64,000 nucleotides of DNA from Deltaproteobacteria bacterium RBG_16_49_23 (GCA_001798855.1 MGQQ01000089.1:12189-76188), one strand, 5' to 3'. Shown: positions 6,026 through 59,716, counted from the first letter of the stretch. The notes: a model not told the origin generated them from the letters alone. Numbers and translations: made by a program.

Positions 6026-6200
6026 GTAACAATTTAGTTGTTTGAAAAAACTTTCAAAATCCCTCCCCTGCCTTCGCCGAAGCGGCTTCGCGCAGGCAGG
6101 CAACCTCCCTTTGCCAAAGGGAGGAGTAATTAATCCCCCTTTGTAAAAGGGGGATTGCCGCCAGCCCATAGGGCCTCTGGCCCGGAGGGAGGGGGATTTT
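6026..6200. mobile_element. MITE-like repeat family B carrying two nested mini-inserts (6067-6100, 6147-6179)
   Basis: GTAACAATTTAGTTGTTTGAAA left end and CTCCCTTT-NNN-AAAGGGAG / CCCCCTTT-NNN-AAAGGGGG hairpins; compared with the insert-free copy at 34986-35126. Confidence 0.75.
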
Positions 6201-6273
6201 CATGGTTTGAGCCTGTCCCGTATAAACGGGAGATGACGCTCCGTCATGAAAGATTGCCAAGGAGCCATCAGGC

Positions 6274-7797
6274 TTACTTCTTCTGAGCCTCTGCCTTGGC
6301 TTTAGTGATTGCCTCATCCTCTCTCTTCACATCCTCCAGTGTCTTTGGCTTCACCTTATCCGGCACAGGCTCCAGGCCATACTTCCACTTCAAGAACTGC
6401 GCCCCGGTCTGCGGAAAAAGTGCATAGATCAAAGCATCATAAAGGTCTTTGGCCAGCTCTTTCGACTCCCCCTTCACCTTCTCTAACTCCGGTTCAATAA
6501 CATCCGCTGGACGGCAGGTGATTGGCTCCTTCCCTTTCTTATATCCTTTGAGCACCACATTCTTGACTTCATCTGAAATCGGCACAGGAGGCCTTCCATA
6601 GAGACCGTAGACATAGTCCTGCGTCTCCTTTGACACCATCTTATAACGACCGAAAAGAACATTGAGCACCGCTTGAACTCCCACAATCTGTGACGTCGGC
6701 GTCACCAGTGGAGGATATCCCAGGTCCTTTCTGGCCTTAGGCAGCTCCGCATAGACCTCTGAAATTCTATGGATGGCATTTTGCTGCCTTAGCTGGCTAA
6801 CCATGTTTGAGATCATCCCACCGGGGATCTGGTGTTTTAGCACTCCCGTGTCGATCACGGACATCTTCGTGGTATCCAGAAAGTCACGATATTTAGGCGC
6901 AACCGACTCCAGATATTCTCCTAACTTCAGGAGCTTCGAAAGGTCGAGCTTCGGATCCCAGGGCGTTCCCTGAACAGCCACGAGGATGGGTTCCACAGCG
7001 GGCTGGGAAGAACGGAGCGCGAAAGGGGCGAGCGCTGTATCAACGACATCCACCCCTGCCTCAATCGCCTTCAGATAGGTCATCGTGCCCATCCCGCTCG
7101 TATAATGTGTGTGAAGTTGAATGGGAATTTTCACCGTTTTCTTCAATCCCTTGACCAGCTCATAGGCGTCATAAGGCGCAAGAAGTGCGGCCATATCCTT
7201 GATGCAGAGCGAATCGGCGCCCATCCCTTCCAGGACCTTTGCCTTTTCAAGATAATAATTGAGATTATAGATTGGCCCGCCCATTCGTGTCTCAGTCAGT
7301 GAATAACAGATCGTTCCTTGAATATGCTTCTTGCAGCGCTTGATCACTTTGAAGGCTGTCTCAAAGTTACGCTCATCATTGACGGCGTCAAAAACCCGAA
7401 AGATGTCAATGCCCACTTCAGCGCATTTCTCTACAAATGCCTCTACCAGGTCATCGGCATAATGACGATAACCCACCAGATTTTGACCACGGAGAAGCAT
7501 CTGAAAGGGCGTTCTCGGCATCAGCTTCTTTAAAATCCTTACCCTTTCCCAGGGATCCTCTCCTAAAAAGCGATGGCAGACATCATAAGTCGCCCCTCCC
7601 CACACTTCAACAGAATGAAATCCCACCTGATCCATTTCCTCGGCAATGGGAACCATATCCTCAACCCGCATTCTCGTGGCTAAATTGGATTGATGACCAT
7701 CGCGTAGAGTCGTATCCGTTATGCCGATTGGCTTTTTCGCCACCTTCTCCATACCTTCCATTCTTGTAGCCTCCTTTCCATCCTCAAAAGGGATCAT
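6274..7797 (-). CDS. Pyruvate/oxaloacetate carboxyltransferase subunit (PycB/OadA/transcarboxylase 5S-like, no biotinyl domain)
   Basis: DTTLRDGHQS, EVWGGATYD, IKDMA, HTH, PGGM, PLVTPTSQIVG; true start probably 7761 or 7752. Confidence 0.9.
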   Translation of the reverse strand: MIPFEDGKEATRMEGMEKVAKKPIGITDTTLRDGHQSNLATRMRVEDMVPIAEEMDQVGFHSVEVWGGATYDVCHRFLGEDPWERVRILKKLMPRTPFQMLLRGQNLVGYRHYADDLVEAFVEKCAEVGIDIFRVFDAVNDERNFETAFKVIKRCKKHIQGTICYSLTETRMGGPIYNLNYYLEKAKVLEGMGADSLCIKDMAALLAPYDAYELVKGLKKTVKIPIQLHTHYTSGMGTMTYLKAIEAGVDVVDTALAPFALRSSQPAVEPILVAVQGTPWDPKLDLSKLLKLGEYLESVAPKYRDFLDTTKMSVIDTGVLKHQIPGGMISNMVSQLRQQNAIHRISEVYAELPKARKDLGYPPLVTPTSQIVGVQAVLNVLFGRYKMVSKETQDYVYGLYGRPPVPISDEVKNVVLKGYKKGKEPITCRPADVIEPELEKVKGESKELAKDLYDALIYALFPQTGAQFLKWKYGLEPVPDKVKPKTLEDVKREDEAITKAKAEAQKK

Positions 7798-7817
7798 TTA
7801 ATTAATGTTAATTTTAT

Positions 7818-7852
7818 GCGTTAACGTTAACGCCTACGGAAAAATTTGTCAA
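7818..7852 (-). promoter_or_regulatory. Sigma70-like promoter overlapped by 16-bp perfect palindrome GCGTTAACGTTAACGC (likely LacI operator)
   Basis: Palindrome 7818-7833 with central CG; TTGACA (7852-7847)-17 bp-TAACGT on minus strand; half-site GCGTTAAC also at 6001-6008 before lacI. Confidence 0.7.
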
Positions 7853-8213
7853 GCTTAAAATTTGGAAGGATTTATCTTTCCGGGAAGAAAATCGACGGGG
7901 AGAGGAAAGATCGTTCCTCTCCCCTTGCGTTCGAATTGGATTCAAGGTGAGATCAATTTGTCCGGAATTGTAATTCCCTTCTCCCTGTAATATCTAACCG
8001 CCCATGGATGAATAAGAAAGCATTTGTTCTGAACATCCCCCCTCGCCCCCCTTTGCCAAAGGGGGGATGTTAGTGTTTGCCATTTGCTAAAAGGGGATCA
8101 TAAGAATGATAGTCATATTTTATGAGGTTTTTACCCACCCACTTACACGAAGAGCCCTTTATTATTCCCCTCTGTCTCACTCTGTTTATATTGAAGTTGT
8201 CAATGACCTCCTT

Positions 8214-8942
8214 TCACGGATTTTCATCGGAAACCAGTAGGCTCTTCATCTCCCCCGGACTGCCGAACTCCATCTTCATCAGCCGCTGATAATAGGATCG
8301 TGAGGTGTAGAGGGCAGCCAGCGGATTATGCCCTGTGACCCGGTCTTTCACGGCAAAGACGGTGGTCAGGCCATTAATAAATTTCAAAAAGAGGGAATCA
8401 TGGCCGATACAGAGTCCCAGCATGACATTAAAATCGGTCCCGGCCTGATTCAAGATTTTTGCCTGGGCAATCGGATTACACATTGACTCAAATTCCCCGA
8501 TACAGATCTTCTCCTCATCCTTCACACCGATCCTCTCCTTTGGAATCCCTCCCACCTTGCACGAAACCGAAATAACCTCGAAGCCATGCTTTTCCAGAAT
8601 CTCTGAGAGAACGGCAGCCTCATGGGTCAGGCCGCCACAGAAGGCCAAACCAAGCTTCTTATAGCCCATCCTCTGAGAGAATTCGATCAACTCCTCCATT
8701 CTGCTTTTTGTGGGAATCATCACAAACGGTCTGGCTTCACGCAGTGCGTAACAGGAACCCTCCTGAACCGAGGCCGTCCGTGCAAACTCTTTTATCTCCG
8801 GATCGTCATATCTCTCCATGGCTTCCGTCAGGGCTGACTCTCCTTTCTTTGTTGGACACCAGGAAGGCCCCCTGCCCTTCTCCAGCCGGCAGATCTTCTC
8901 TACCACCGCACACTTTGCGCAATTGCATCCGATGTCTTCCAT
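8214..8942 (-). CDS. DUF1847-family metal-binding protein
   Basis: N-terminal Cys cluster, GLAFC, CKVG, MCNPIAQA, GLCIGHDSLF, KDRVTGHNP. Confidence 0.8.
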   Translation of the reverse strand: MEDIGCNCAKCAVVEKICRLEKGRGPSWCPTKKGESALTEAMERYDDPEIKEFARTASVQEGSCYALREARPFVMIPTKSRMEELIEFSQRMGYKKLGLAFCGGLTHEAAVLSEILEKHGFEVISVSCKVGGIPKERIGVKDEEKICIGEFESMCNPIAQAKILNQAGTDFNVMLGLCIGHDSLFLKFINGLTTVFAVKDRVTGHNPLAALYTSRSYYQRLMKMEFGSPGEMKSLLVSDENP

Positions 8943-8963
8943 ATCTCTTTCTCCTTATGATTG

Positions 8964-9181
8964 GAGCTTGTTGCACAAATGCTAAAAATACTCTTCGACA
9001 AGCTCAGTGTGAACGGAGTTTAAATTAAAACCATTGACTTTTCAAGTTCGTCCTGAGCCCTTCCTTCGACTTCGCTCAGGACATTCGGAAAAAACCGTTC
9101 GCCCTGAGGTTCTCGAAGGGCATATAGTTCGCTTAGGACAGACTTGTCGAAGAACGGAAAGTGGCTTTCTGCAACAGGCTC
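8964..9181. mobile_element. MITE with terminal inverted repeats and 4-bp direct repeat, containing CTTCGAC..GCTCAG hairpin repeats
   Basis: GAGCTTGTTGCA ... TGCAACAGGCTC flanked by ATTG on both sides. Confidence 0.65.
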
Positions 9182-9359
9182 ATTGGCTATCTATTTCGTA
9201 ACAATAAAGAGGACCATTTCCGCAGGTCTCGAATCTTTTCAACGTTTCTAACTTGTTCAACAATCTTAACTCGTCGTTCTCTTGTCCAGAGACGATTGCT
9301 CAGATCGTGGAACTTCTCAATCAACTCTTCCCAGGAGAGAGGATTCTCAGGATCGCCTT

Positions 9360-9570
9360 TGCAAAATCCTTCCCCTGCCTTCGCCGAAGCGGCTTCGCGC
9401 AGGCAGGCAACCTCCCTTTTCCCTCCGGGTCGGAGACCGCTCTGGGTCGGAGACCAAAGGGGGATTCACCCTGTTAGATAAATTTTTTTCACTTTCAATA
9501 ATTGGATATAGACCTGCTATCTAACAGGGTGAAGGGGGATTAGATCAGGTTTTTCAAAGCGCTAAACTAT
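9360..9570. mobile_element. Family B repeat with three nested inserts (9374-9407, 9421-9454, 9467-9531)
   Basis: Alignment by eye to the empty copy 34986-35126; 9467-9531 has a 14-bp perfect TIR CACCCTGTTAGATA. Confidence 0.75.
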
Positions 9571-9724
9571 TGCCATTAATGAATAATAATAGTTTATTGT
9601 ATGCAAGATAACATGAATATTCAAACAAATTATATCATCCTCAAACGGTGTTCAAACACAATCTTTCTAAAAAAAGAAAAAACTGCTATATTACTGCTAT
9701 ATTAAGGCAATCAGAAAGGATGCT

Positions 9725-10690
9725 ATGGAAAGAAAAGGACACATGACCAGAGATCGGAATATATCGGAGATCGTGCGAGCGCTTCTCCACTCCCAGATCG
9801 CTTTTCAGGAAATATTCAAAAGGTACAGAAAGGGCCGGCTCCGCTTCCCTGACATTGGAAACTGGGTGGATGACAAGGGTCAGAGCCCTCTCTACAATCT
9901 GAAAGAACAATCCCATTCCCTTTTCCGCAATAAGGGAAAAGAGCCTTTCCAGAAAAAAGAGTGGCTCCTTGACCTGGTCATTGGATCCATCTTTCACGAA
10001 GCCATGAAGTTAAGGGAAAATATTTATCAACTCGAAATCTATCGCCCCAAATATCATAAATATAAACTCCATATTGGAAGATCGGCTTATGAAAGGGATT
10101 ATTCGCAACAATTTGAGCGGATCATCTCAAAGGCGGAAAAGGGAGTGCTTCTGGGAGTATCGGAAATGCGATCCCTTTTCCATGATGCCATGGAGCAGTT
10201 GATCGACCTCTTTAAAGAGAATGGCCGGAATCCCTATCTGGTCCGATTCCTTCTGGAACATCACGCCCTTCTTCAGAAAGCTTACGGTTCTCAAAGAGGG
10301 AAGGAGGTTTTCGGTCTCATCTTTGAAGGTGGAATGCAGGAGGCTTATGACCGGGCGGGCCGCAGTTATCTTTCGAGCGGGTATTATGATCTCTCATCCC
10401 GCCACTTTGCAAAAGCGTTGAAGCTGGGGCCTCCCCATCATGAACTTCGTTTTCTGCTTTACTTCAGCCTCGGGATGAATGCCTATTATAAAAATGCTTA
10501 CCCGGAGGCCCTGTCCTCCTGGGGAAAACTGATCTCCATCCGGTTAAAGAAAAATTTTAAGAAACATTATGCCAGGCAACTCGAGGAGGTCTGCCATAAG
10601 ATGGCTTCGGAATTAAACGAGGAGGGAAAACCCAAGCTGGCCCAAAAGGCGCATCTCCTTGCCGATCAGATTAAAAAAATGTTAGGATGA
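9725..10690 (+). CDS. Hypothetical alpha-helical protein with C-terminal TPR-like repeats
   Basis: 321-aa ORF, AAGGA RBS; AGRSYLSSGYYDLSSRHFAKALKLGP is TPR-like. Confidence 0.65.
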   Translation: MERKGHMTRDRNISEIVRALLHSQIAFQEIFKRYRKGRLRFPDIGNWVDDKGQSPLYNLKEQSHSLFRNKGKEPFQKKEWLLDLVIGSIFHEAMKLRENIYQLEIYRPKYHKYKLHIGRSAYERDYSQQFERIISKAEKGVLLGVSEMRSLFHDAMEQLIDLFKENGRNPYLVRFLLEHHALLQKAYGSQRGKEVFGLIFEGGMQEAYDRAGRSYLSSGYYDLSSRHFAKALKLGPPHHELRFLLYFSLGMNAYYKNAYPEALSSWGKLISIRLKKNFKKHYARQLEEVCHKMASELNEEGKPKLAQKAHLLADQIKKMLG

Positions 10691-10709
10691 ATTAAGAGGG
10701 GTCTGTGAG

Positions 10710-10928
10710 ATGCCAATCTATGAATATCGTTGCAGTCATTGTAAACACGAGTTTGAAAAGCTGGTTTTCAACTCTTCTGAAAAGATCATCTGCCCCGAAT
10801 GCAAAGGCAAAAAAGTGAGCCGGATGATGTCGGCCTTCGCCTTTTCGAGCGGTGGAAAGTTCAAGAGCGCCGCCAGTCCCTCCTGCAGCGGCTGTTCCTC
10901 CAGCAGCTGTTCCACCTGTGGCTCTTAA
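10710..10928 (+). CDS. FmdB-family zinc-ribbon protein
   Basis: MPIYEYRCSHC...CPEC, Ser/Cys-rich tail. Confidence 0.88.
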   Translation: MPIYEYRCSHCKHEFEKLVFNSSEKIICPECKGKKVSRMMSAFAFSSGGKFKSAASPSCSGCSSSSCSTCGS

Positions 10929-11050
10929 TCACGGAATGATGGAATACCGGAATACTGGAACAATGGGGGATTAAAAAAGAAGACATCGAATGAATGATTT
11001 GTTTTTTCTTTGACCCATCATTCCATTTATCCATTATTCCCTTATTCCCT

Positions 11051-11974
11051 TTAGAGGTTCGTCAGATGCCTTCTTGCCTCCATCTCCTCCCTCAACGAGA
11101 CATCTTCCTGAAGCCCTTTTAAAACCTCATCGATCAAGCGAATCATCTCCTCCTTCTCCTCCGGCAGTTTCCCGTGGAGGGGAACCAGATTCGAGATATG
11201 ATCGCTTAAAAATTGGGAGGTGACCTGGAGTTCTTTCAGAAGGAGCCTGGTCTCTTTTAAAATCGTCTCCGGCGATGCCGGCTGGAACCGGCCTTCCTCC
11301 ATGGCTTCATAAAGAAGGGAGTTGGGTTGGGGGATGAAGGTCCGGACGCGTATGAAATGGGGATCGATCTGATTCAGAACGTCCGCTGTCCCTCTCGCAT
11401 GTTGCTCCCACTTTTTTTCTCCGCCGATGCCCAGCAAAACATATAAAGAGTATTCAAAACCTGCCTGCTTTCCCCTCTTCCCCGCTTCGACCATCTCCTC
11501 CGGAGTGGCTCCTTTTTCAATTTCCTCGAGCAGTTCACGGTCACCCGTCTCAAGACCGACATGAAGCCGATTCAATCCTGCTTTGAAGAGCTTTTCCAGC
11601 TCCTCGACAGGCTTCTTGGCCAGTGTCTTTGCCCTTGCGTAACTGGTTACCCTTTCAATATGGGGGAAAGAAGAATACAAAGCATTTAAAATCTTGATCA
11701 ACTCATCGGTCTTGTAAACCAGGCTGTTCGAATCCCCGATAAAGACTGTGCGGACTCTATCGCTGTAGAGTTCCCTTGCCATGGAGATATCCTCAAGCAC
11801 CTCCTCCGGTTCTCTTCGCTCGAATTTGATATTTTTATACATGGAACAGAAGGTGCACCGGTTCCAGGGACATCCTCTCGTCACCCTCAACAGGAGGCTG
11901 TTTGCTTCACTCGGCGGCCGAAAAGGGGGAAAGTCATACTCTCTTCTTCTCAATCCGAATCGTCCAATCGTCAT
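11051..11974 (-). CDS. Radical SAM protein
   Basis: FRPPSEA...GCPWNRCTFC; SDHISN. Confidence 0.88.
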   Translation of the reverse strand: MTIGRFGLRRREYDFPPFRPPSEANSLLLRVTRGCPWNRCTFCSMYKNIKFERREPEEVLEDISMARELYSDRVRTVFIGDSNSLVYKTDELIKILNALYSSFPHIERVTSYARAKTLAKKPVEELEKLFKAGLNRLHVGLETGDRELLEEIEKGATPEEMVEAGKRGKQAGFEYSLYVLLGIGGEKKWEQHARGTADVLNQIDPHFIRVRTFIPQPNSLLYEAMEEGRFQPASPETILKETRLLLKELQVTSQFLSDHISNLVPLHGKLPEEKEEMIRLIDEVLKGLQEDVSLREEMEARRHLTNL

Positions 11975-12014
11975 AACTGACCTCGCTGAAAAAGATAATT
12001 GAACTAAAATGATC

Positions 12015-12221
12015 GTACCAATTTAGCTGTTTGAAATCGTCTTGTAAAATCCCTCCCCTGCCTTCGCCGAAGCGGCTTCGCGCAGGCAGGCCACCTCCCT
12101 TTTCCAAAGGGAGGAAAAATATTTCCCCCTTTTGCCCTCCGGGTCAGAGACCGCTTCGGGTCGGAGACCAAAGGGGGATGGAGGGGGATTAGATCATTTT
12201 CTAAAAGCGATAAAGTGTTAC
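12015..12221. mobile_element. Complete family B MITE with nested inserts (12057-12090, 12135-12168)
   Basis: Ends GTACCAATTTAG ... TAAAGTGTTAC; otherwise collinear with 34986-35126. Confidence 0.8.
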
Positions 12222-12243
12222 AAGTAATTTAAAGTGACTAAAG

Positions 12244-13005
12244 TTAAAAGATCATCGTTACCGGAATCCCTTTTTTCTCAAAACGTTCCTTTAGATCGAT
12301 TCCAATGACATTAAAATAATCCTCTTTTAGATAGTCGTCCAGTCCATGTTTATGGTAGAGCCCCTTTACTTTATTGGGATAATTCATCTTATCAATGAGG
12401 ACCTCATCAACCGCTCCTTCCAGCATTTGAACCAATGTTTTTGAATCCATGGGAAGCAGCGGGCCGACAAAGGCATAGGTCTTCACTTTTTCCAGATGCA
12501 GGGTTCTCAATGCCTTTGCTCTGGATTCAATTGCAGGAGAGCCCGGTTCGAAGATCCTTTTTATATTTTCGTCATGGGTGCTCATGGTGAGGCCTACTTT
12601 AATATGATTGAACCGTTTAAACAGATCCATATCTCTCAGACAGAGCGGTGAACGGGTCAACAGGTTAACCGGGAACTGTTTGTCCAGAAGGGCTTCCAGG
12701 CATCTCCGGGTAATCTCATATTTTTTTTCAAGGGGCTGGTAGGGGTCGGTCACCGTGCTGATGGCAACCATTCCCAGTTTTGCCCTTTGCAACTGCTTCT
12801 TCAGGAGAGAGGGGGCGTTCACTTTGACATCAATAAATTCACCCCATGGCTCTTTATGGCCGGTGAACCGCTTCATAAAACTGGCGTAACAGTACTTACA
12901 TCCATGCCCGCATCCCACATAAGGGTTGAGGCAATAATCAAACCCAACGATAGCCGTTCTCGTGAGAACGGTCTTTGCAAAGACCTCTTTCACTTTCATT
13001 GACAT
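12244..13005 (-). CDS. Radical SAM protein, spore-photoproduct-lyase-like family
   Basis: LNPYVGCGHGCKYCYA, STVTDPYQPLE. Confidence 0.87.
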   Translation of the reverse strand: MSMKVKEVFAKTVLTRTAIVGFDYCLNPYVGCGHGCKYCYASFMKRFTGHKEPWGEFIDVKVNAPSLLKKQLQRAKLGMVAISTVTDPYQPLEKKYEITRRCLEALLDKQFPVNLLTRSPLCLRDMDLFKRFNHIKVGLTMSTHDENIKRIFEPGSPAIESRAKALRTLHLEKVKTYAFVGPLLPMDSKTLVQMLEGAVDEVLIDKMNYPNKVKGLYHKHGLDDYLKEDYFNVIGIDLKERFEKKGIPVTMIF

Positions 13006-13073
13006 AATTATAACGGAGTCTCAGATTAAATCAAAAGATTCCTGGAATGGCGGAGGATGATTAAGTCCGGGAC

Positions 13074-13832: not shown

Positions 13833-14053
13833 TTTTGAATCCTTTTTAAAAATAGAGTGAAAACAATAAGTTAAACAAAAGCTATTTACAGCAAATATTA
13901 TACCAATGCGAGATAATTAAAATTCAATAATATTATCAAAATGTTAGGTTAATAACCCGGATGTTTGTCTAAAAATGACTCTATAAATATTGCCCAATCC
14001 GAACAAAAAATGTCATTTTATTCATATATGAAATTTACAACGACTTCATCAGC

Positions 14054-14230
14054 CTATTCAAAACAACCCAGCTGGCACTGGCCGATTTTGATCTTCATCT
14101 CATTCAAGACCTTTGTTAACTCCTTCTTGGGTATTCCAAAATCATCAGCGATCTTAAAACAGATAGCGCATGGGATCTTGCCATCTTTCGCCTTCTCTTT
14201 TATAGCCATCTCTATTTTCTCACGGTCCAT
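14054..14230 (-). CDS. Small Cys-containing protein (CxxC...CQLGCF)
   Basis: AAGGAG RBS before MDREK; 58 aa; longer ORF call extends into a hairpin repeat. Confidence 0.75.
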   Translation of the reverse strand: MDREKIEMAIKEKAKDGKIPCAICFKIADDFGIPKKELTKVLNEMKIKIGQCQLGCFE

Positions 14231-14305
14231 ACCCAACTCCTTCCCATTGGCCCCCTCACCCCACCCTCTCCCCATAGGGGAGAGGGTGGGGTGAGGGGGG
14301 ATCTT

Positions 14306-17454: not shown

Positions 17455-17455
17455 A

Positions 17456-20310: not shown

Positions 20311-20479
20311 AAATCACCATTTGACCACACCCCAGAGGAAATGCTATCTTTTGGGCTGCGGGGTTCTAATTTTTAAGAATTATATTAATTCCACAATTCG
20401 CATTCCCTGCCCGCGCCTGCCTGCGGTAGGCAGGGCAGGCAGGCGCACTCCACAATGAGTTAGAGAAAGGAGCATCAAA

Positions 20480-34985: not shown

Positions 34986-35126
34986 GTATCAATTTAGTTG
35001 TTTGAAATCCTCTTGTAAAATCCCTCCCAACCTCCCTTTGGCAAAGGGAGGAGAAAAATTTCCCCCCTTTGCCAAAGGGGGATGAAGGGGGATTAGATCA
35101 GTTTCTTCAAAGCACTAAAGTGTTGT
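34986..35126. mobile_element. Family B MITE, empty (insert-free) copy
   Basis: GTATCAATTTAG...CTAAAGTGTT ends; two internal hairpins. Confidence 0.75.
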
Positions 35127-37556: not shown

Positions 37557-37730
37557 GTATCACTTTAGCTGTTTGAAAATTTCCTTGCAAAATCCCTCCC
37601 GACCTCCCTTTGCCAAGGGAGGAGATAAGGGTTTCCCCCTTTGGAAAAGGGGGATTAAGGGGGATTTTATGATGATTCTTTTGACCAATTGACTCATGAA
37701 ACTCTTCTTTTCATAAGGCTAAAGTGATAC
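37557..37730. mobile_element. Family B MITE inserted in a GAAATTT heptamer tract
   Basis: GTATCACTTTAGC ... GCTAAAGTGATAC TIR; GAAATTTG on both flanks. Confidence 0.75.
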
Positions 37731-45262: not shown

Positions 45263-45423
45263 ATGACCGGGACCCCACGCAATCCCATCCCCCTCCCAAC
45301 CTCCCCCTTGAAGGGGGAGAAGCCTATATTTTCCTCCCCTTCAAGGGGAGGGTTAGGGTAGGGATGGGGTTAGAAAGATAGCACAGTGAAAAAATGTAAT
45401 AAAGAAAAGGTAGAAACAAAGCC

Positions 45424-46429: not shown

Positions 46430-46690
46430 TTTCTAATCCCCCTTAATCCCCCTTCGTCAAAAGGGGGATATGTTTTTCCTCCCTTTGGCAAAGGGAGGTG
46501 GCCTGCCTGCGCGAAGCCGCTCCGGCGAAGGCAGGGGAGGGATTTTAAAAAGTTTAATTCAAACCGCCAAATTGATACCGGATTATTTATGGTCCAAAAT
46601 TGACATATTGTTCTTAAAATCTCCCCTATCCCCTGGTTGCCCTCCGGGCCAGAGGCCCTATGGGCCGGCGGCCAAAGAGGGGAATTCCTC
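46430..46690. repeat. Family B hairpins with nested inserts (46502-46535, 46640-46672)
   Basis: Reverse-orientation copies of the same 34-bp and 33-bp inserts seen at 6067 and 6147. Confidence 0.75.
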
Positions 46691-51646: not shown

Positions 51647-51737
51647 CTGACTCAGATTTGACATGTCCTCCTGATCTTGGGTAAATTACTTCCTCAAGTA
51701 GCACTTCGTATCCGAGAGAGGATAAGGTAACAACGCG

Positions 51738-53485: not shown

Positions 53486-53491
53486 GTGGAA

Positions 53492-53520
53492 AGTATAGAC
53501 GTCCAGACGTCAAATGTCAA
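53492..53520 (-). promoter_or_regulatory. Near-consensus sigma70 promoter of the MTase, two GACGTC sites in the spacer
   Basis: TTGACA-tttGACGTCtgGACGTC-TATACT, 17-bp spacer, 6 nt before the GTG start. Confidence 0.85.
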
Positions 53521-53669
53521 GAACAATTTCGGATTGCAGATTGGACCAAAATACTCGTATAATATTTTAAGAATGCCCAATAAATAATACGATGTCTTGG
53601 CTTAGTACCGGGTATTTGAATCTGAAATCATGCTCCCGAAGGATAAAATTGCCAAAGCGACAAGGAAAC

Positions 53670-53888
53670 GGTTCGCTGATATCCCCCGAGGTCTGGGAAT
53701 ATCACATTGGCGGTTATCAGGTTGCAGAGAAATGGCTCAAGGACCGTAAAGACAGGCAGCTTTCATCCGAAGAAGTAGCTCACTACACCAGGGTAATTAC
53801 AGCCATTGCAGAGACAATCACCATACAAGAAACTTTAGATGAATTGTTCAAAGAAGTTGAAACAAGCCTGCTCGAAGTGAAGCTGTGA
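53670..53888 (+). pseudogene. C-terminal fragment of the same fused R-M enzyme
   Basis: ISPEVWEYHIGGYQVAEKWLKDRKDRQLS...IAETI resembles the type ISP C-terminal signature. Confidence 0.78.
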
Positions 53889-53939
53889 GCAGTTAGGTTT
53901 GGGGTCTGACTTGATTATGACTTTAAGAGAAATGAAGAG

Positions 53940-53994
53940 TACCTTGACGATCCAGCGTATGGCTGACAGCCGTCGTTGATTTAGGTCGTTGGGC
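53940..53994 (+). other. attC-like site (left end decayed)
   Basis: TCCAGCGTATGGCTGACAGCCGTCGTTGATTTAGGTC-GTTGGGC; ends in GTTRRRY; homologous to 54549-54606. Confidence 0.6.
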
Positions 53995-54060
53995 TTGGGA
54001 GAAATTGATATCTGGTTCATTCCGTGCTATTCTATCAAGCGAAAAACAGGAGGCAATGCT

Positions 54061-54249
54061 ATGTCAACAGTGATGGAAAAGGAGGAAGCCCACAAACTCA
54101 TCGATCGAATGCCCTCAAGCGCCACATGGGATGATTTGATGCGCGAAATATACGTCCGCGAGGCGATTGAACGCGGGTTATCCGACAGCAAGGCAGGCCG
54201 CACCAAAGACGTGAAAGAGGTACGGGCGAAGTACGGCTTGCCGGAATGA
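54061..54249 (+). CDS. Antitoxin of RelE/ParE pair
   Basis: AGGAGG RBS; ATWDDLM...IERGLSDSKAGRT; overlaps toxin start. Confidence 0.8.
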   Translation: MSTVMEKEEAHKLIDRMPSSATWDDLMREIYVREAIERGLSDSKAGRTKDVKEVRAKYGLPE

Positions 54250-54548
54250 AAGTTCACTGGACAGATACAGCGGAGGGACATCTCGACGCCCTCTACGCTT
54301 ACATTGCTCAGGATTCGTCCGAGTATGCCAAGCGAACGGTGGATCGGCTTACCCGAAGATCTCAGCAGATTGCCGACTTCCCATTCTCAGGCCGCAGAGT
54401 TCCTGAATACGATATTGACCAGATTTGTGAAGTAATCGAAGGTCCCTACCGCATCATCTACCACATTAAGCCGGACCAGATTGACGTTCTGGCCGTCATT
54501 CACGGGGCAATGGATGTCCTTCGTTCGTCAGAAGAAGAGGATGATTGA
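54246..54548 (+). CDS. RelE/ParE-family toxin
   Basis: MKVHWTDTAEGHL...YIAQDS...FPFSGRRVPE...YRIIY...VLAVIHG. Confidence 0.9.
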   Translation: MKVHWTDTAEGHLDALYAYIAQDSSEYAKRTVDRLTRRSQQIADFPFSGRRVPEYDIDQICEVIEGPYRIIYHIKPDQIDVLAVIHGAMDVLRSSEEEDD

Positions 54549-54606
54549 GCCGAACAAATCTCTCCAGCGAATGGTTTACAGCCACCGGTGATTTCAGATG
54601 TTCGAC
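54549..54606 (+). other. attC-like integron cassette recombination site (58 bp)
   Basis: GCCGAAC immediately after the toxin stop ... GTTCGAC; imperfect internal inverted repeat. Confidence 0.62.
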
Positions 54607-54700
54607 GGTATGGATCTCCTTCCGGAACCCTTTTATCTCTTGAGGAACTTCGGACAAGAATAGAGAAAAGGAAATGACATGATTCGTTTGTAGTGAATAT

Positions 54701-54916
54701 ATGAACTTGAAGAAAGTCAATTCCAGTATGGTATATGCAATAGGGTACGACCTCAAGTCGAAAACCTTGGAAGTGGTTTTTAGAAGTGGAAAGGCATGGG
54801 CATACAAGGAGGTCCCGAAAAAGGTTTACCAAGAATTTCTAAAATCAGAATCGATTGGATCATACATGCGCGAGAATATCATCGATTGCTATCCGTCCTA
54901 TCCCATTAGACGATAA
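54701..54916 (+). CDS. KTSC-domain protein
   Basis: VNSSMVYAIGYD...LEVVFRSG...Y..VP...S.SIGSYM. Confidence 0.9.
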   Translation: MNLKKVNSSMVYAIGYDLKSKTLEVVFRSGKAWAYKEVPKKVYQEFLKSESIGSYMRENIIDCYPSYPIRR

Positions 54917-55046
54917 AGTCCTTTCTCACATTAAATTTGAATCCGAATTCCGCCATGCACCACGTGGGGGTGCATGGCAGCCCTGAACCACATTGGATTC
55001 AGGGCCAAAGCCCTGAACCTTACATGGTTCAGGGCGCAATTCAATA

Positions 55047-56174
55047 TCAGGATAGGATCTCCCCCAACGCTCCCATCAGGCAATGAATATTCCGAACCCT
55101 GCAAGCCTCACCCATGAGGCCGACCCTCCATATTTTTCCTTTCAGCCAGCCCAGGCCTCCTCCCACTTCAATATTGTATTCATTTAAGAGCCTCGACCGT
55201 ATCTTGGCATCGTCGACCCGCTCAGGGAGAACCACCGAAGTCAACATGGACAGACGATATCCCTCCTGCGCAAAAAGCTTAAATCCCAAACCCTCCAGCT
55301 CCATCTTTAACCGGTCGCCCAGCATCTCATGACGCCGGAATCTCGCCTCAAGCCCCTCCTCAAAAACGATCCGTAATCCTTCCCTCATCGCATAGAACAT
55401 GGAAACAGGCGCCGTATGATGATAAACCCTCTCTTCCCCCCAATATTTTTCGAGTAAAATCAAATCAAGATAAAAACTCTGAACCTTTGTCGTGCGCGAC
55501 CGGAGAACATCCATGGCTTTAGAGCTCACGGTGATGGGAGAAAGCCCAGGTGGAACACTAAGACACTTTTGAGAACTGCCATAGCAGACATCGATTCCCC
55601 ATTCGTCAACCTTCACATCATATCCCCCCAGAGTGGTCACAGCATCCACCACAAGAAGGGTGTCCGTTCGCTTACAGTAGGCCCCGATCTCCTCAAGCGG
55701 CTGCCTCACACCGGTGGAGGTCTCCCCGTGAACGAGACCGCAGATCCTGGCCTCGGGATGTTCCTTCAATGCCTTGATCATTTTTTCAGGTTCAATCCTC
55801 TTTCCCCATTCCTCCTCCACCCGAATGACGTTCGCGCCACACCGGGCGGCTACCTGAGTCATTCTGTCTGCAAAGAAGCCATTGACGCCGATAACAACCA
55901 CATCTCCAGGCTCAACGAAATTGACATACGAAGTCTCCATGCCTGAGCTTCCCGTTGCAGAGATGGCCAGGGTCGCCTGGTTCTTTGTCTGGAATACATT
56001 TCTTAACATTTCTCTGATCTCGTCCATACAGGCCAGAATTTGTGGATCGAGATAACCGATGACCGGGTTAGACATGGCTTGATAAACCCGGTAGTGGACA
56101 TTGCTCGGCCCAGGGCCCATAAGAATTCTGTAACTCGGATGCATATCCCCGCCCACACACCTTTCCATCTTCAA
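55047..56174 (-). CDS. Alanine/serine-glyoxylate aminotransferase (class V PLP)
   Basis: LMGPGPS, VHGETSTG, VDAVT, SQKCLSVPPG, YHHTAP, WRVGLMG. Confidence 0.9.
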   Translation of the reverse strand: MKMERCVGGDMHPSYRILMGPGPSNVHYRVYQAMSNPVIGYLDPQILACMDEIREMLRNVFQTKNQATLAISATGSSGMETSYVNFVEPGDVVVIGVNGFFADRMTQVAARCGANVIRVEEEWGKRIEPEKMIKALKEHPEARICGLVHGETSTGVRQPLEEIGAYCKRTDTLLVVDAVTTLGGYDVKVDEWGIDVCYGSSQKCLSVPPGLSPITVSSKAMDVLRSRTTKVQSFYLDLILLEKYWGEERVYHHTAPVSMFYAMREGLRIVFEEGLEARFRRHEMLGDRLKMELEGLGFKLFAQEGYRLSMLTSVVLPERVDDAKIRSRLLNEYNIEVGGGLGWLKGKIWRVGLMGEACRVRNIHCLMGALGEILS

Positions 56175-56457
56175 ACCTCCTCCAAGAAATTTCTCTAAAC
56201 GCCTCGAAATTTCTGATTACACCGATTAGGAGCTGATTACACGGATACGAAACACTTCGTAAATGAAGGACATCTAGGTAATCATCTTTTGAAATCTGTG
56301 TATTCAAGAGAGCGTGTATTAGTTTTTCAAATCTCTCTCCAAATCCAGTTTTAAACCGTCGCTGGCAGCAATCACTTTGAAGCCTAACTCATTTCCCAAT
56401 TCATCTGCAACCACCCAGGGATCGGCGCTGGGCATCCCCCCGCCCCCCTTTACTAAA

Positions 56458-56716
56458 CTGATCCTTACCCATAAATAAGGGCGCTGGACACAAGGAGCAC
56501 TCCGACAGATCCCCCATCCCCCTCCTAACCTCCCCCTTGAAGGGGGAGGAATCACGCGAAGCGCGTGACGATTACCCTCCCCTTCAGCCTGCCTGCGCGT
56601 AGCCGCTTCGGCGAAGGCAGGGGGGAGGGGCGGGGTGGGGTATGCCAAAGCCTCAATTGCGCCAGTCGTACGTTCCCTCCTTATGTCCAACCTCCTGAGA
56701 TATGGGACACGGTTAG
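56458..56716. mobile_element. Family E MITE (copy 2) with direct repeat TTTACTAAA and nested 34-bp insert (56588-56621)
   Basis: Collinear with 39800-40018; same hairpin-loop target. Confidence 0.82.
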
Positions 56717-56743
56717 TTTACTAAAGGGGGGAGTATGGAGGGA

Positions 56744-57118
56744 TTAGTCATCTTCCAGTTCTTCTAACTTCTCCTCGTCCAGGCCGAAATAGTGACCCAC
56801 CTCATGGATCACGACTTCCCTGACCTTCTCTCCAATCTCTTCCTTTGTATGACAGATCGATTCAATGGGGAGTTGAAAAAGGGTGATCTTATCCGGAAGG
56901 ACATTCCCATAATAAAACCCCCTCCGATCGATGGGAACCCCCTGATAGAGTCCCAGTAAATCGGAAGGAGAACGAAGGTCCATCTCCGATAGAAGGTCTG
57001 GAGAGGCTCGGTCTTCTATTACCACATCGACATTTTCCATCCTATTTTTTAAGGACTGGGGCAGCCCCTCCAGGGCTGAAATCGCAATCGCCTCAAACTC
57101 TTTTCGAGTCAATTTCAT
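56744..57118 (-). CDS. Minimal zincin metallopeptidase family protein
   Basis: LLGLYQG, PDKITLF, VVIHEVGHYFG. Confidence 0.88.
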   Translation of the reverse strand: MKLTRKEFEAIAISALEGLPQSLKNRMENVDVVIEDRASPDLLSEMDLRSPSDLLGLYQGVPIDRRGFYYGNVLPDKITLFQLPIESICHTKEEIGEKVREVVIHEVGHYFGLDEEKLEELEDD

Positions 57119-57186
57119 TTCTAAGGGAAACGAATCCTGTTGGATACCCTATTCGAGTCATTCGCTATCATTCGTTTCTTTGTTAA

Positions 57187-59364
57187 TCACTTTTGCAGCT
57201 CCGGGACGATCTTTTCAAAATAATCCAGGACCTGGGGATTGCTCAATGCATCCCGGTTCAGAACCGGCCTCCCGTGGATGATATTGGTGACGGCGCTCTC
57301 CACTTTTTTCATATTCATCGTATAGGGAGCATCCGGCATCTCCATAATGATCGCCGGGACGTGACGGGGGGAAGCCTTTCCCCGAAGGGTCTTTTTGATG
57401 GTATCCTTCAATCCGTCCGTCAATTGGGCGCCCGGCTCCGGTTTGATAAAGAGGATAATTCGCTGTTCGCCTTCCCAATTCTGTCCAATGGCCAGGCTAT
57501 CCGCAATCCCTTCTATCCTCTCCACAACATTATAAATTTCGGCTGTTCCAATTCGGACTCCGGAGGGCTTCAGAACGGCGTCGGAGCGGCCGTAAAAAGT
57601 GATCCCCTTCGTGTCACTGTGAAAGACGACATAGTCGCCATGGCGCCAGACACCAGGGTAGTCGTTAAAGTAGGCGGCTTTGTATTTCTCTCCATTCGGA
57701 TCGTTCCAGAAATAGAGGGGCATGCATGGCGCAGGGGCTTCGCATACCAACTCCCCCTCCTTGTCCCAGACCGGTTTCCCGTTTTCGTCATAGGCCTTCA
57801 CCTTCATGCCAAGTCCCGGGCCTTGAAGCTCCCCGGCATAGACACGCTGAATCGGGCTGCCAACAGCAAAACAGCCATTGATGTCCGTCCCACCGGAGAT
57901 GGAATTAAAATGGAGGTCCTTCTTCACCTCCCGGTAGACCCATTCAAAACCCTCTGCCGAGAGAACAGAACCTGTCTGTGAAATCTCTCTCAGGGAGGAG
58001 AGATCGTAATTTTTCCCGGGTTGAATCCCTTCGCCCCGGAGATAGTTTATATAGCTCGCACTCAGGCCAAAAAAAGTGATCTTTTCGTCCTGGACCATTT
58101 TCCACATGGCCTCAGCATCGGGAAAGTTCGGGTTGCCATCATACAGGATAAGGGTGGCGCCCACCCCAAGTGTGCTCATCAGCCAGTTCCACATCATCCA
58201 ACTGCAGGTGGTGATGTAAAAGACCTTATCATCACGCCTGAGATCGCTATGGAGCATCAGTTCTTTCAAATGGTGGAGTAAAATACCGCCTGCCCCCTGA
58301 ACCATGCATTTGGGCTTGCCGGTCGTCCCGGAGGAAAACATGATAAAAATGGGATGGTCAAAGGGTAATTGTTCAAATTCAAGGGCCGGCTCCTTTTCCG
58401 GGGCCAGGAAGTCTTCATAATGGACGCCATTGGGAATATTTCCGATATCCGGCTTAGTTCCCGTATAGGAAACGATGACAACTTTCTTCAGTGAAGGGAT
58501 GGCTTGGGCTACTTCTGCCGCATTCCCCAGGGTATTGAAGGGTTTCGCTTTGTAAAAATAACCGTCCACCGAAAACAAGACCTTGGGCTCTATTTGACCG
58601 AGCCGGTCCAGAGCTGCCTGGGACCCGATGTCTGTAGCGCAAGAGGACCAGACAGCCCCGATACTGGTTGCCGCTAACATGCCGATTGCCGTCTCCATCA
58701 TGTTCGGCATATAGCCTGCAATCCGATCCCCCGGTTTAATTCCTATGTCGCGTAAAGATTTGGCCAGCCGGGCCACGGTGTTATAAAGCTCTCTATAAGT
58801 CATGGTCGAATATTTTTGGGTTTCCCCTTTGAATATGAAAGCCAATCGATCATCCCGATACCGCAGAAGATTTTCTGCAAAATTCAACCTCGCCCCGGAA
58901 AACCACTTCGTCCCTGGGAACTTATTTAAATCCTCTACCACCCGGTCCCACTTCTTTGAGGCTTTGACTTCTGCAAAATCCCACATGGCCGCCCAAAAAT
59001 CAGGAATGGAATCAACAGACCACTGATACAGGTCATCAAACGTTTTAAATTGTTTCCCGTGCTTCCGGTTTACAAAGTCAATAAAGCGGGTCACGTTGGC
59101 TTTCTTGACTTGATCCTCAGAAGGTACCCACAGAGGCGTTTTTGTGCTTTTTATAGCTGATAAAGTTACTGCCACAGGCTTGATGGAGACCTTCTTCGAG
59201 GGTTTCCTGGATGGCTTAACCACAGGTTTTTTTACAACCTTTTTAGCAATCTTTTTAATCTTCTTCGTAGCTTTTTTTAAGGGTTTTTTTGAAACTTTTT
59301 TTAATGTCTTTTTTGAAGTCTTCTTTACTGATTTCTTTGAACTCTTTTTCAAAACCTTTTTCAT
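57187..59364 (-). CDS. Acetoacetate-CoA ligase with Lys-rich N-terminal extension
   Basis: PLWVPS, WFSGARLNFAENLL, FSSGTTGKPKC, SGGTD, WRHGD, GRSDA, GVRIGTAEIY. Confidence 0.9.
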   Translation of the reverse strand: MKKVLKKSSKKSVKKTSKKTLKKVSKKPLKKATKKIKKIAKKVVKKPVVKPSRKPSKKVSIKPVAVTLSAIKSTKTPLWVPSEDQVKKANVTRFIDFVNRKHGKQFKTFDDLYQWSVDSIPDFWAAMWDFAEVKASKKWDRVVEDLNKFPGTKWFSGARLNFAENLLRYRDDRLAFIFKGETQKYSTMTYRELYNTVARLAKSLRDIGIKPGDRIAGYMPNMMETAIGMLAATSIGAVWSSCATDIGSQAALDRLGQIEPKVLFSVDGYFYKAKPFNTLGNAAEVAQAIPSLKKVVIVSYTGTKPDIGNIPNGVHYEDFLAPEKEPALEFEQLPFDHPIFIMFSSGTTGKPKCMVQGAGGILLHHLKELMLHSDLRRDDKVFYITTCSWMMWNWLMSTLGVGATLILYDGNPNFPDAEAMWKMVQDEKITFFGLSASYINYLRGEGIQPGKNYDLSSLREISQTGSVLSAEGFEWVYREVKKDLHFNSISGGTDINGCFAVGSPIQRVYAGELQGPGLGMKVKAYDENGKPVWDKEGELVCEAPAPCMPLYFWNDPNGEKYKAAYFNDYPGVWRHGDYVVFHSDTKGITFYGRSDAVLKPSGVRIGTAEIYNVVERIEGIADSLAIGQNWEGEQRIILFIKPEPGAQLTDGLKDTIKKTLRGKASPRHVPAIIMEMPDAPYTMNMKKVESAVTNIIHGRPVLNRDALSNPQVLDYFEKIVPELQK

Positions 59365-59499
59365 AAGCCCCCCCCCTTTAAATCTGATGGTCCTATATTT
59401 CTCGGATTGCCCTTCATTCCATATCATTCTTAAAATTCCTCGTCAAGCATTATTTGTCTGAGAAATTAACTCTCAAATCCCCCATCCCCCTTTGCTAAA

Positions 59500-59716
59500 C
59501 TGACTGTATCCCTTAAGTCGGGAGGCTGGACACAAGGAGGGAACATACGACTGGTGTAATCGAGGCTTTCGCATACCCCACCCCCACCCCTGCCTGCGCC
59601 GAGGCTTCGGCAGGCAGGCTGAAAGGGAGGGTAATCGTCATGCGCTTCGCGTAATGCCTCCCCCTTCAAGGGGGAGGTGAGAAAGGGGATGGGGGATCTA
59701 TCGGAGTGCCCCTTGT
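59500..59716. mobile_element. Family E MITE (copy 3, inverted, one end truncated) with 30-bp nested insert (59589-59618)
   Basis: Reverse complement of the other copies; abuts CCCCCTTTGCTAAA. Confidence 0.75.

Follow-up and report, generated by a model that had tools for sequence, protein, structure and literature searches.

A 34-nt hairpin, called H here, occurs in 94 copies in the genome from which the window (the whole 64,000-nt stretch of DNA analysed) derives. H is a real, discrete element that resembles REP and SDR repeats and forms part of a nested, hairpin-in-hairpin ecosystem of small repeats. As a whole, the observations are best explained by H being a non-autonomous mobile hairpin, to which we assign a probability of about 0.6. 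Since it is exactly present or absent in unrelated repeats and identical in distant phyla, H behaves as a mobile element would, and would be among the smallest known.

The spread of REP- and SDR-like micro-repeats has been an open question for decades, because their boundaries, targets, and donors can rarely be defined. In the H system, the limits of the unit are known to the nucleotide, paralogous sites with and without it number in the hundreds, the target rule is explicit (C^Y at the 5' edge of a hairpin loop, where ^ marks the insertion point), and the nesting of hairpins supplies an internal order of events. Direct tests with oligonucleotides and a few candidate enzymes are therefore possible. 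The identical H sequences in different phyla suggest that either the element or its machinery spread horizontally not long ago.

The hairpin and its copies

All five H copies listed in the window by the initial annotation are present (Table 1); three are exact, and the two on the minus strand carry one mismatch each. None of 100 shuffled sequences contained any match. The observation is thus confirmed, and it is much larger than had been stated. Of the 94 genomic copies (up to four mismatches allowed), 56 are exact, 25 have one mismatch, nine have two, three have three, and one has four. By position, 86 copies are called intergenic, six lie in crudely called ORFs, and two lie elsewhere. H folds into an imperfect hairpin (dG -12.4 and -13.3 kcal/mol, z -3.0 and -3.6 for the two strands) with an outer stem of 7 bp, CCTGCCT/AGGCAGG. 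Compensatory changes were not found in the stems of H. An Rfam scan of 18 H-bearing loci gave no match to H; the sole match, the 3' part of RNase P RNA, lies about 200 nt from H at locus L103.

Table 1. Copies of H, empty sites, and related features in the window
Feature	Position	Strand	Context
H, exact	6067..6100	+	Host family A, aaaatccctcc[H]caacctccc; 156 ungapped empty matches to the joined flanks genome-wide
H, exact	9374..9407	+	Family A-like site, aaaatccttcc[H]caacctccc
H, exact	12057..12090	+	Family A, aaaatccctcc[H]ccacctccc
H, A14G variant	46502..46535	-	Family A; variant recurs in other genomes, including Nitrospirota G064
H, T22A variant	56588..56621	-	5' loop edge of family C hairpin, ccctcccc[H]ctgaaggggaggg
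Sibling hairpin H2, 30 nt, ends CCTGCCT/AGGCAGG	59589..59618	+	In family C element
Empty family A site	35018..35036	+	AAATCCCTCC^CAACCTCCC; further empty sites at 37590 (+) and 40057 (-)
Empty family C hairpin loop	39912..39925	-	CTTCAG^GGGGAGGG; second empty loop at 45339
Composite intergenic mosaic (family A host, H, and other loop-insert modules)	6010..6271		Particular to this genome
Second H-bearing composite mosaic	11975..12243		Orthologous spacer in relative G008 is 38 nt

Filled and empty host repeats

Sites with and without H can be compared within the same host repeat family. Among 139 family A sites, 106 are empty, 23 contain 34 nt, five contain 64 nt, one contains 40 nt, and four differ otherwise. 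The 64-nt inserts are H with a further nested 30-mer. Similarly, of 129 family B sites, 90 are empty, 17 contain 34 nt, and three contain 64 nt. The joined flanks of most H copies match, without gaps, 10-170 empty sites at other places in the genome (blastn-short). For 18 of the 94 copies there are at most two empty-like matches, and unique, non-repeat contexts are among these. The position and orientation of H are constant within each host family.

The presence of H is independent of the lineage of the host repeat. On the tree built from the left flanks of family A, 28 changes are required for 29 filled copies (shuffled mean 26.5), and 276 of 300 shuffles do as well. A single ancestral filled allele is therefore rejected. 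Filled copies are instead distributed in proportion to the family A subtypes (CCA 15/52, CAA 9/33, CCG 4/21). As a control trait, the right-flank variant next to H was placed on the same tree; it requires 30 changes against a shuffled mean of 41.4, and none of the 300 shuffles did as well. Since this variant tracks the left-flank tree and H does not, H is not co-converted with its immediate neighbours. The tree of family B has no resolving power in this test, because even the control trait is matched by 36 of 300 shuffles.

The initial annotation described an ultra-small discrete unit inside other repeats, and this description is supported by the length spectrum (0, +34, and +64 nt), the family A tree, the variety of contexts, and the filled and empty copies in Nitrospirota. 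The empty alleles that it quoted exist at 35018 and 39912, along with further ones. The absence of a target duplication also holds, as an empty site equals the left flank plus the right flank with no doubled bases. Its count of at least two host families was an understatement, with 108 distinct 6+6-nt junctions among 188 sites in all sequences examined; the filled copies are scattered over many unrelated contexts.

Junctions and target sites

Insertion occurs at C^Y, and conservation in the flanks is limited to -1 (C) and +1 (Y). In 86 of the 108 contexts, C stands at -1. Further out the left flank varies, and at -2 the counts are 63 C, 27 T, 16 G, and 2 A. On the right, where H ends in GG^Y, the base at +1 is 76 times C, 30 times T, twice G, and never A. 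Junctions are also biased towards one side of host hairpins. Of 107 junctions, 23 fall on the 5' edge of a hairpin loop, where 4.1% of control positions lie (6.5% when the controls are limited to C^Y); the 3' edge has four of the 107, compared with 5.4% of controls.

Nested and sibling hairpins

H itself receives insertions. The nested 30-mer was found in 31 copies, and all 31 lie within the loop of H or of a sibling hairpin, H4. Another sibling, H2 (30 nt), has 16 genomic copies at up to two mismatches and in family C is frequently located 12 nt upstream of H. H2 at 59589 was one of three variants proposed initially and is the one that proved to be a repeated sibling; the other two, near 20406 (one copy) and 40408 (two copies), share only the CCTGCC/GGCAGG ends. 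A loop that may or may not carry an insert is a pattern seen in many other modules as well. The hairpin CCTCCCTT-N5-AAGGGAGG, for example, has 296 two-strand matches in which the loop is 5 nt long; in 110 others it holds 21-72 nt.

Orthologous loci and distribution

The spacer orthologous to 6010..6271 is 38-52 nt long in 10 genus relatives in which both flanking genes were matched, and 261 nt long here. Intergenic spacers can thus grow five-fold (about 45 to 261 nt) via such hairpin modules. At the spacer orthologous to 11975..12243, relatives other than G008 have unrelated insertions. In 12 genus relatives, no filled/empty difference of H was found at a single orthologous locus; the spacers are minimal or contain unrelated elements, too diverged to align. 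Seven listed sequencing runs, none of them of RNA, contain part of the window. Contigs examined from four of them are short and broken at repeats, and their loose ends derive from paralogues or other organisms.

The distribution of H among relatives is patchy. H is found in 24 of 61 relatives, including eight of 12 in the same genus and none of 24 outside the family, and the four genomes of the genus with no copy are 96-98% complete. The exact 34-mer is present in MAGs labelled Nitrospirota, Syntrophaceae, Syntrophorhabdus, and Rhodospirillales, and H is thus identical in at least two phyla. The Nitrospirota-labelled MAGs contribute 12 loci from eight MAGs, and their host repeat was not seen in this genome. 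It is a MITE, a short repeat that is non-coding and resembles a transposon. Of 16 anchors in this Nitrospirota MITE, six are filled, three hold a 33-nt variant, and seven are empty. Among the relatives of the Nitrospirota MAG G061, six of 61 have H. Plasmid and phage collections gave no match to H; one viral contig carries it.

Comparison with known systems

H is a short, extragenic imperfect palindrome of high copy number, as REPs are. With REPs and REPINs it shares the form of a 20-40-nt imperfect palindrome with a mismatch or bulge, present in tens to hundreds of copies and presumably acting as folded single-stranded DNA. According to the available accounts, REPs and REPINs carry GTAG (or CGTC) as a conserved tetranucleotide at the base of the hairpin (PMC3733652, PMC8266576). 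In contrast, H and its flanks have no constant GTAG/CTAC or CGTC, no RAYT gene flanked by H (the feature of a REPtron) was found, and the inverted doublets of REPINs are absent, the closest two H copies in the genome being 1365 nt apart. Cleavage of REPs is described as taking place next to the hairpin, at CT or CA (PMC8266576). The boundaries of H, as read from the sequence, are YC^...^Y, mostly CC or TC on the left and GG^Y on the right. Insertion within small palindromes is shared with the GTAG-23 REP of T. roseum, whose available description gives CCGSSCC(n3,4)GGSSCGG as the target, with hundreds of empty copies (PMC3733652). REPIN-RAYT systems are described, in the accounts at hand, as vertically inherited, unlike H, which is identical across phyla. 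H is also similar to the CGTC-tagged REPs of Di Nocera et al. 2013 (PMC3733652) in that no dedicated transposase gene is found despite Y1 genes in the genomes. However, the tag of those REPs is different, and the accessible part of that report describes neither nesting nor cross-phylum identity.

E. coli BIMEs and Neisseria intergenic repeat clusters, as far as they are described, are likewise mosaics that combine a small vocabulary of hairpin modules in various ways, but the modules here are nested in each other's loops rather than placed side by side, and their presence or absence is exact. IS200/IS605 elements and PATEs share with H the lack of target duplication, hairpin ends read as single-stranded DNA, and a fixed orientation at the target. 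According to the descriptions available, IS200/IS605 elements require a pair of dissimilar subterminal hairpins and, 5' of the left end, a conserved target of 4-5 nt. A PATE derived from them would differ from H, which is a single hairpin with only the -1 C conserved on its left, no strand bias, and no TnpB found in the genome. H has 7-bp inverted ends but lacks the target-site duplication of a classical MITE. It differs from IS110/IS1111 elements in having 108 different junctions instead of one specific target.

In behaviour, H is similar to the SDRs of cyanobacteria, compared here by description, which are also tiny, nested, and inserted at defined short sites. Elhai et al. reportedly found in 2008 that SDR4-6 of Nostoc punctiforme, very small non-coding repeats, behave as mobile units and are nested in each other and in other repeats. 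SDRs (families SDR1-8) are 21-27 nt long and are known only from heterocyst-forming cyanobacteria. To our knowledge, they have no known transposase. SDR5 inserts into HIP1, and no SDR was found outside Nostocaceae, according to the available text of one report (PMC5861425). In contrast to SDRs, H is 34 nt long, occurs in Thermodesulfobacteriota-type and Nitrospirota MAGs, and is identical across phyla; this genome is not rich in HIP1. In the limited library of literature searched, no earlier description of H was found.

Alternative explanations

H might be immobile on its own, a BIME-like mosaic module shuffled among copies of one host repeat by homologous recombination or gene conversion, with new contexts rare and old. 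The whole composite rather than H alone is the lineage-specific insertion at two window loci, many other modules show the same pattern, and position and orientation are fixed per family, all of which fit shuffling. We nevertheless consider it quite unlikely, because bases 1-3 nt from H follow the left-flank tree when H does not, because the junctions are so many and include unique contexts, and because H also lies in native hairpins of other phyla. A related explanation is that H entered each host family once and was amplified passively with the host MITE, the empty copies being an older subfamily. The insertion of whole H-bearing composites at 6010-6271 and 11975-12243 agrees with this, as does the finding that all Nitrospirota copies seen are in one MITE family. 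Passive amplification is very unlikely, however, given that filled copies do not form a clade, that the A14G and T22A variants are spread across several host families, and that the Nitrospirota MITE carries H at two different sites.

Selection for function, rather than mobility, could also keep H identical, if, for example, it served between co-directional genes as a protein-binding site or as a stem-loop for attenuation or mRNA stabilisation. Such gene pairs flank 74 of the 94 copies, compared with about 65% of intergenic length; conservation is extreme, with more than half of the copies exact; and REPs are known, in the sources available, as 3'-UTR regulators. Yet function leaves the exact insertion states, the nesting, and the patchy presence within one genus unexplained, H has no preferred orientation to the coding strand and no Rfam match, and 34/34 identity across phyla cannot be convergent. 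This explanation is as improbable as passive amplification. It is extremely unlikely that the cross-phylum copies are artefacts of metagenome binning and that H is confined to one lineage. The two copies in a Zixibacteria-labelled MAG do lie on one contig with flanks resembling Syntrophaceae host repeats, and G063 and G065 rest on unverifiable single copies. On the other hand, the 12 Nitrospirota loci have their own host repeat, with empty copies in the same genomes; G061 has 11 copies on nine contigs beside ordinary genes at 57% GC; and the single copy on a Rhodospirillales contig lies in 65% GC DNA upstream of a cold-shock gene.

Proposed movement and candidate enzymes

As a mobile hairpin, H would be a non-coding, non-autonomous 34-nt DNA module with the outer stem CCTGCCT/AGGCAGG serving as its ends. 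Its gain, and perhaps its loss, would involve the precise unit, duplicate no target bases, and keep to one orientation per site. The target would be a C^Y step, preferably at the 5' edge of another hairpin or a few bases from one, and because of this preference H would accumulate inside other repeats. H would in turn host the 30-nt hairpin that inserts in its loop. Movement probably proceeds via folded single-stranded DNA and may be catalysed in trans by a strand-transferase that reads hairpins.

The initial annotation suggested a HUH/RAYT-type transposase, and the genome does not favour it. None of its eight Y1_Tnp genes has H within 3 kb (the nearest copy is 3059 nt away; the genome is 93% complete, and a gene may be missing). 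The one bona fide RAYT (C58; 97.9 bits against the RAYT-equivalog cut-off of 80) is flanked by its own, different REPs and occurs in six of 61 relatives, unrelated to the presence of H. H lacks GTAG and CGTC, and the PF01797 profile has no match in the H-bearing Nitrospirota G064 and G082. No Y1 transposase gene is flanked by H, and PF01548 (IS110 DEDD) has no match in the genome. Large genomic repeats are few, and there are therefore no multi-copy IS candidates. The orientation of H is not biased relative to GC skew (37:30) or the coding strand (39:35) and thus shows no lagging-strand signature of the IS200/IS605 kind.

Among the Y1 subfamilies, C58, C103, C86, and C169 do not co-occur with H. 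The C124-type subfamily (330 aa) does so statistically, only within the family: it is present in 19 of 24 genomes with H and two of 13 without (Fisher p = 3e-4, kinship ignored), and it correlates with H copy number (rho = 0.62). Homologues occur in eight of 14 H-free genomes of other families, and the C124 type was not found in G061, whose sole Y1 is 30-42% identical to the Y1s of this genome. TIRYTs are Y1 transposases with genes flanked by terminal inverted repeats. The leading, though weak, candidate is tentatively a HUH Y1 of this 330-aa 'NHFH' TIRYT-like subfamily; an enzyme of unrecognised kind, or a conserved host enzyme, is equally possible. A bolder but unlikely proposal is that H is a host-independent 'nano-transposon' that encodes nothing, crosses phyla intact, and is put at the 5' side of single-stranded hairpin loops by a conserved cellular enzyme or an unrecognised class of strand-transferase. 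H would then found a self-nesting ecosystem that builds intergenic mosaics de novo.

Other sources of movement were also considered. Two reverse transcriptases, that of a group II intron and a 645-aa one beside a methyltransferase-like gene, do not adjoin H-like sequence. The recurrent context aaaggttNcgc[H]tctaaag, a candidate 'master copy', is the interior of a MITE with 38-nt inverted ends and not a gene, and the genes bracketed by pairs of H copies are ordinary ones. A half-site search for a long autonomous element bounded by two H arms gave only nested small inserts.

The Hairpin Unit and Its Host Repeats

H is a real, discrete nano-element that is precisely inserted in other repeats. All five copies that the initial annotation had located in the window are present, and no match at all appeared in 100 shuffles. 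Three variants had been described as sharing the ends of H. One of them, H2, is a sibling of 30 nt that occurs 16 times in the genome; the other two are 1- or 2-copy sequences that have only the end hexamers in common with H. The assembly around the window (3.83 Mb, 171 contigs, 49% GC, not HIP1-rich) carries 94 copies of H at four or fewer mismatches, 56 of them exact, with variation at positions 8, 9, 14, and 22. H folds as an imperfect hairpin on either strand (-12.4 and -13.3 kcal/mol, z -3.0 and -3.6). From the outside inward, its 7-bp stem is followed by a 1x1 mismatch, 3 bp, a bulged C, and 4 bp, and the loop has 3 nt. Since no compensatory pair changes were found in the stems across the genomic copies, the copies look young and offer no covariation test. 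Crude gene calls place 86 of the 94 in intergenic DNA, where 74 lie between co-directional, 6 between convergent, and 6 between divergent genes; another 6 are in called ORFs, and 2 are elsewhere.

Locations of the hairpins, host sites, and associated features (window coordinates unless a contig or locus is named)
Feature	Location	Strand	Remarks
H, CCTGCCTTCGCCGAAGCGGCTTCGCGCAGGCAGG	6067, 9374, 12057	+	exact copies
H	46502, 56588	-	one mismatch in each
H2	59589	+	30-nt sibling
Proposed variants of H	20406, 40408		only end hexamers shared
Family A, empty	35018, 37590, 40057
Family C, empty	39912, 45339
Family C host	56330-56700, 59480-59740		MITE-like
CTCCGGGYCRGAGRCC-like modules	6157-6190, 9420-9460, 12130-12170		loop-inserting
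Spacer with H	6010-6271		261 nt; 38-52 nt in ten genus relatives with both flanking genes matched
Spacer with H	11975-12243		269 nt; 38 nt in relative G008, unrelated elements in others
Conserved stretch	L147:591-725 (G000:C161:17190-17324)		~135 nt, just upstream of an H copy
H on viral contig	L127:3001-3034		within an ORF, at its 3' end
RAYT	G000:C58:2348-2845		165 aa
Y1 genes	C103:25499-26485, C86:15282-16256		outside the window
Reverse-transcriptase-domain protein	G000:C95:8151-10088		645 aa

The empty alleles cited earlier for families A and C exist, and the window holds others. The 25-nt flanks on both sides of every H copy were joined and matched to the genome; most of the joined flanks have 10-170 ungapped matches spanning the junction. 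When the sites of the two largest host families were counted directly, the inserts at a single fixed position fell into discrete lengths. In family A, with its site between AAATCCCTCC and CNNCCTCCCTT, 106 of 139 sites are empty; inserts of 34 nt occur in 23, of 64 nt in 5, and of 40 nt in 1, and 4 sites are other. All of the 34-nt inserts are H or one-mismatch H. Family B, with its site between AAATCTCCCC and YNNCCCCTCT, has 129 sites; 90 of these lack an insert, 17 have one of 34 nt, and 3 have one of 64 nt, together with scattered others.

The 64-nt form is H with a 30-nt hairpin inside its own loop, and all 31 genomic copies of this 30-mer lie within H or a 33-nt sibling, H4. Over both strands, the hairpin CCTCCCTT-N5-AAGGGAGG matches 296 times with its loop at 5 nt; in 110 matches the loop instead holds 21-72 nt, in a few discrete classes. 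Since small modules besides H also occur with and without an insert in the loop, H is one member of a nested hairpin-in-hairpin ecosystem. A second loop-inserting family, with units like CTCCGGGYCRGAGRCC, occupies the loops of CCTCCCTT.../CCCCTCTT... hairpins and forms discrete insert classes genome-wide. The family C host is roughly 230 nt long with the ends ccccctttagtaaactaacc.../...cagtttagtaaagggggg, and its 5' part contains GGAGGGAACGTACGAC, faintly like the GGGGACGT motif beside the C124-type Y1 transposase genes.

Host-Repeat Trees and Target Site

Descent of the filled copies from a single ancestral filled allele was tested on trees of the 60-nt left flank in family A (135 rows, 29 filled); rows with short flanks or irregular inserts were omitted (4 of 139 in family A and 20 of 129 in family B). 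As a control trait, the variant 1-3 nt right of the site required 30 changes versus 41.4 when shuffled, and none of 300 shuffles was as good. This clustering on left-flank trees indicates that the family A trees carry signal. On these trees, the filled state required 28 changes for its 29 copies versus a shuffled mean of 26.5 (276 of 300 shuffles as good), by which a single filled ancestor in family A is rejected. The numbers of filled copies follow the abundance of the host subtypes (CCA, CAA, and CCG). The result also argues against co-conversion of H with neighboring bases, and it is compatible alike with many gains or many precise losses. The family B tree is uninformative because its control trait did not cluster (36 of 300 shuffles as good). 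The description of H as a mobile hairpin parasitizing other repeats thus holds, given the exact filled and empty states, the discrete lengths, and the scatter of filled copies over the host tree.

The junction set combines the genome of the window (G000) with at least 96 loci from other genomes. It gives at least 188 H sites and at least 108 distinct 6+6-nt junctions among G000 and the matches listed from other genomes. The base before the insert (position -1) is C in 86 of the 108 listed junctions. After it, at position +1, there are 76 junctions with C, 30 with T, 2 with G, and none with A. The boundary of H is ambiguous by one base where +1 is C and unambiguous where it is T; at the latter junctions a target duplication is impossible, and its absence, as noted initially, is borne out. 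With a perfect 5-bp stem and a junction within 1 nt of the loop edge as the criterion, 23 of 107 junctions lie at a 5' loop edge, versus 4.1% of all remaining positions in those sequences and 6.5% of the remaining positions between C and Y. The 3' loop edge is not enriched (4 of 107 versus 5.4%). In families A and B, H lies 3-5 nt upstream of a hairpin, just past the 5' arm of a longer-range stem. The orientation of H is constant at each host site, with no bias relative to local GC skew (37:30) or the coding strand (39:35).

Distribution across Genomes and Phyla

H at two or fewer mismatches is found in 24 of 61 relatives. Within the family, 23 of 36 genomes have it; among other families in the class or phylum, none of 24 does. 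Within the genus, 8 of 12 genomes carry 4-35 copies, and four genomes that are 96-98% complete carry none. Two relatives in the genus contain the nested 30-mer, in 13 and 8 copies, and three Nitrospirota genomes lack it. A cross-taxon scan with one genome per species yielded at least 96 H loci. Among the matches listed, the record labels are "delta proteobacterium" (31), Thermodesulfobacteriota (19), Syntrophaceae (18), Nitrospirota (12), "Deltaproteobacteria bacterium" (10), Zixibacteria (2), Syntrophorhabdaceae (2), Rhodospirillales (1), and unclassified (1). Across phyla, H is identical at 34 of 34 positions.

Of the Nitrospirota genomes, G061 carries 11 copies spread over 9 contigs, and G064 carries 6, each on a separate contig; H at one or fewer mismatches is present in 6 of 61 relatives of G061. 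The host there is a different, Nitrospirota-specific MITE, which carries H in its loop and adjoins ordinary genes such as ribH. Among 16 anchors of this MITE in the fetched loci, 6 contain H, 3 contain a 33-nt variant, and 7 are empty between ...cgttc and tcgg...; a second site within it is filled in two other MAGs. The Rhodospirillales copy is in the loop of a local hairpin in 65% GC DNA, upstream of a cold-shock gene. Both "Zixibacteria" copies are on one contig with Syntrophaceae-like flanks, and this contig may be mis-binned. A 5.3-kb viral contig, which also encodes a terminase-like 483-aa ORF, carries H and is a possible vehicle for horizontal spread. No H was found in plasmid or cultured-phage records.

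At the two spacers compared with relatives, the lineage-specific insertion is the whole composite of host repeat, H, and other modules. Two more loci did not align between genomes, and a difference by H alone was seen at none of the orthologous loci compared. Public contigs end at the repeats. One orthologous intergenic spacer (loci L142, L129, and L143 in relatives G003, G006, and G002) contains different, unrelated hairpin or MITE elements in each species. Since the same spacer is invaded by different elements within the genus, such spacers are insertion hot spots. The conserved stretch in L147 is 87-97% identical in eight genus relatives, with surroundings about 77-84% identical; it may represent a gene for a small RNA or a tRNA-like molecule, with a terminator at its end.

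Candidate Enzymes and Known Systems

The initial annotation had proposed that an HUH/RAYT-type transposase encoded elsewhere might spread H, with a search for RAYT, IS200-IS605, or IS110 genes flanked by it as a check. G000 contains eight Y1_Tnp genes, none with H within 3 kb, and no match to IS110 or TnpB; no such flanked gene was found there. The RAYT on contig C58 (NCBIfam equivalog, 97.9 bits versus a cut-off of 80) has copies of its own REP family (gttacgtaactcaaccctttagggttga...) on either side. It forms a separate REPtron unrelated to H, and its occurrence in 6 of 61 relatives bears no relation to H. The other seven Y1 proteins are ~315-343 aa long and contain NH[VYF]H or SHFH together with YIH(L/M)NP, and a domain scan gave the C86 protein a DnaA-C-like tail. 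Their genes are flanked by short inverted motifs such as GGGGTCAG..., and they match the "TIRtron/TIRYT" arrangement of Di Nocera et al. 2013 (PMC3733652). The proteins resemble subclass 2.1 ("no REP") of Quentin et al. 2018. Around six of the seven genes (on C103, C86, C169, C23, C124, and C10, outside the window), the motifs are GGGGTCAGGT.../...ACCTGACCCC or GGGGACGTWGG.../...CCAACGTCCCC. The C124 type is multi-copy, and genus relatives show as many as 6 matches.

At a threshold of E<=1e-70, the occurrence of the C103, C86, and C169 types is unrelated to that of H. The C124 type occurs within the family in 19 of 24 H-bearing versus 2 of 13 H-free genomes (Fisher p = 3e-4) and correlates with H copy number (rho = 0.62), both with kinship ignored. 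A general effect of repeat-rich genomes is a live alternative for this co-occurrence, since Y1 genes as a whole are more common with H (mean 9.4 versus 3.6 PF01797 matches per genome). Outside the family, C124-type homologs are found in 8 of 14 H-free genomes. In Nitrospirota, G061 has none at E<=1e-70, its sole Y1 being 30-42% identical to the G000 proteins, and the H-bearing G064 and G082, MAGs of unstated completeness, gave no PF01797 match. Given the kinship-blind association, the failures outside the family, and these nulls, HUH mobilization of H is still an analogy, for which the statistics offer a weak lead.

In size, shape, and copy number, H is like the REPs, and insertions of REPs into small palindromes, with numerous targets left empty, are reported in PMC3733652. 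H fails the tests that define REPs, as it is without their tag, REPtron, and doublets. It also departs from the vertical inheritance reported for REPIN-RAYT systems. In behavior, its nearest match is the cyanobacterial SDR elements. No prior description of H was found in the literature searched. G000 also encodes two reverse transcriptases unrelated to H; one of them, on C95, lies directly upstream of a DNA-methyltransferase-like ORF, and the pair, which has no link to H, looks like a defense island.
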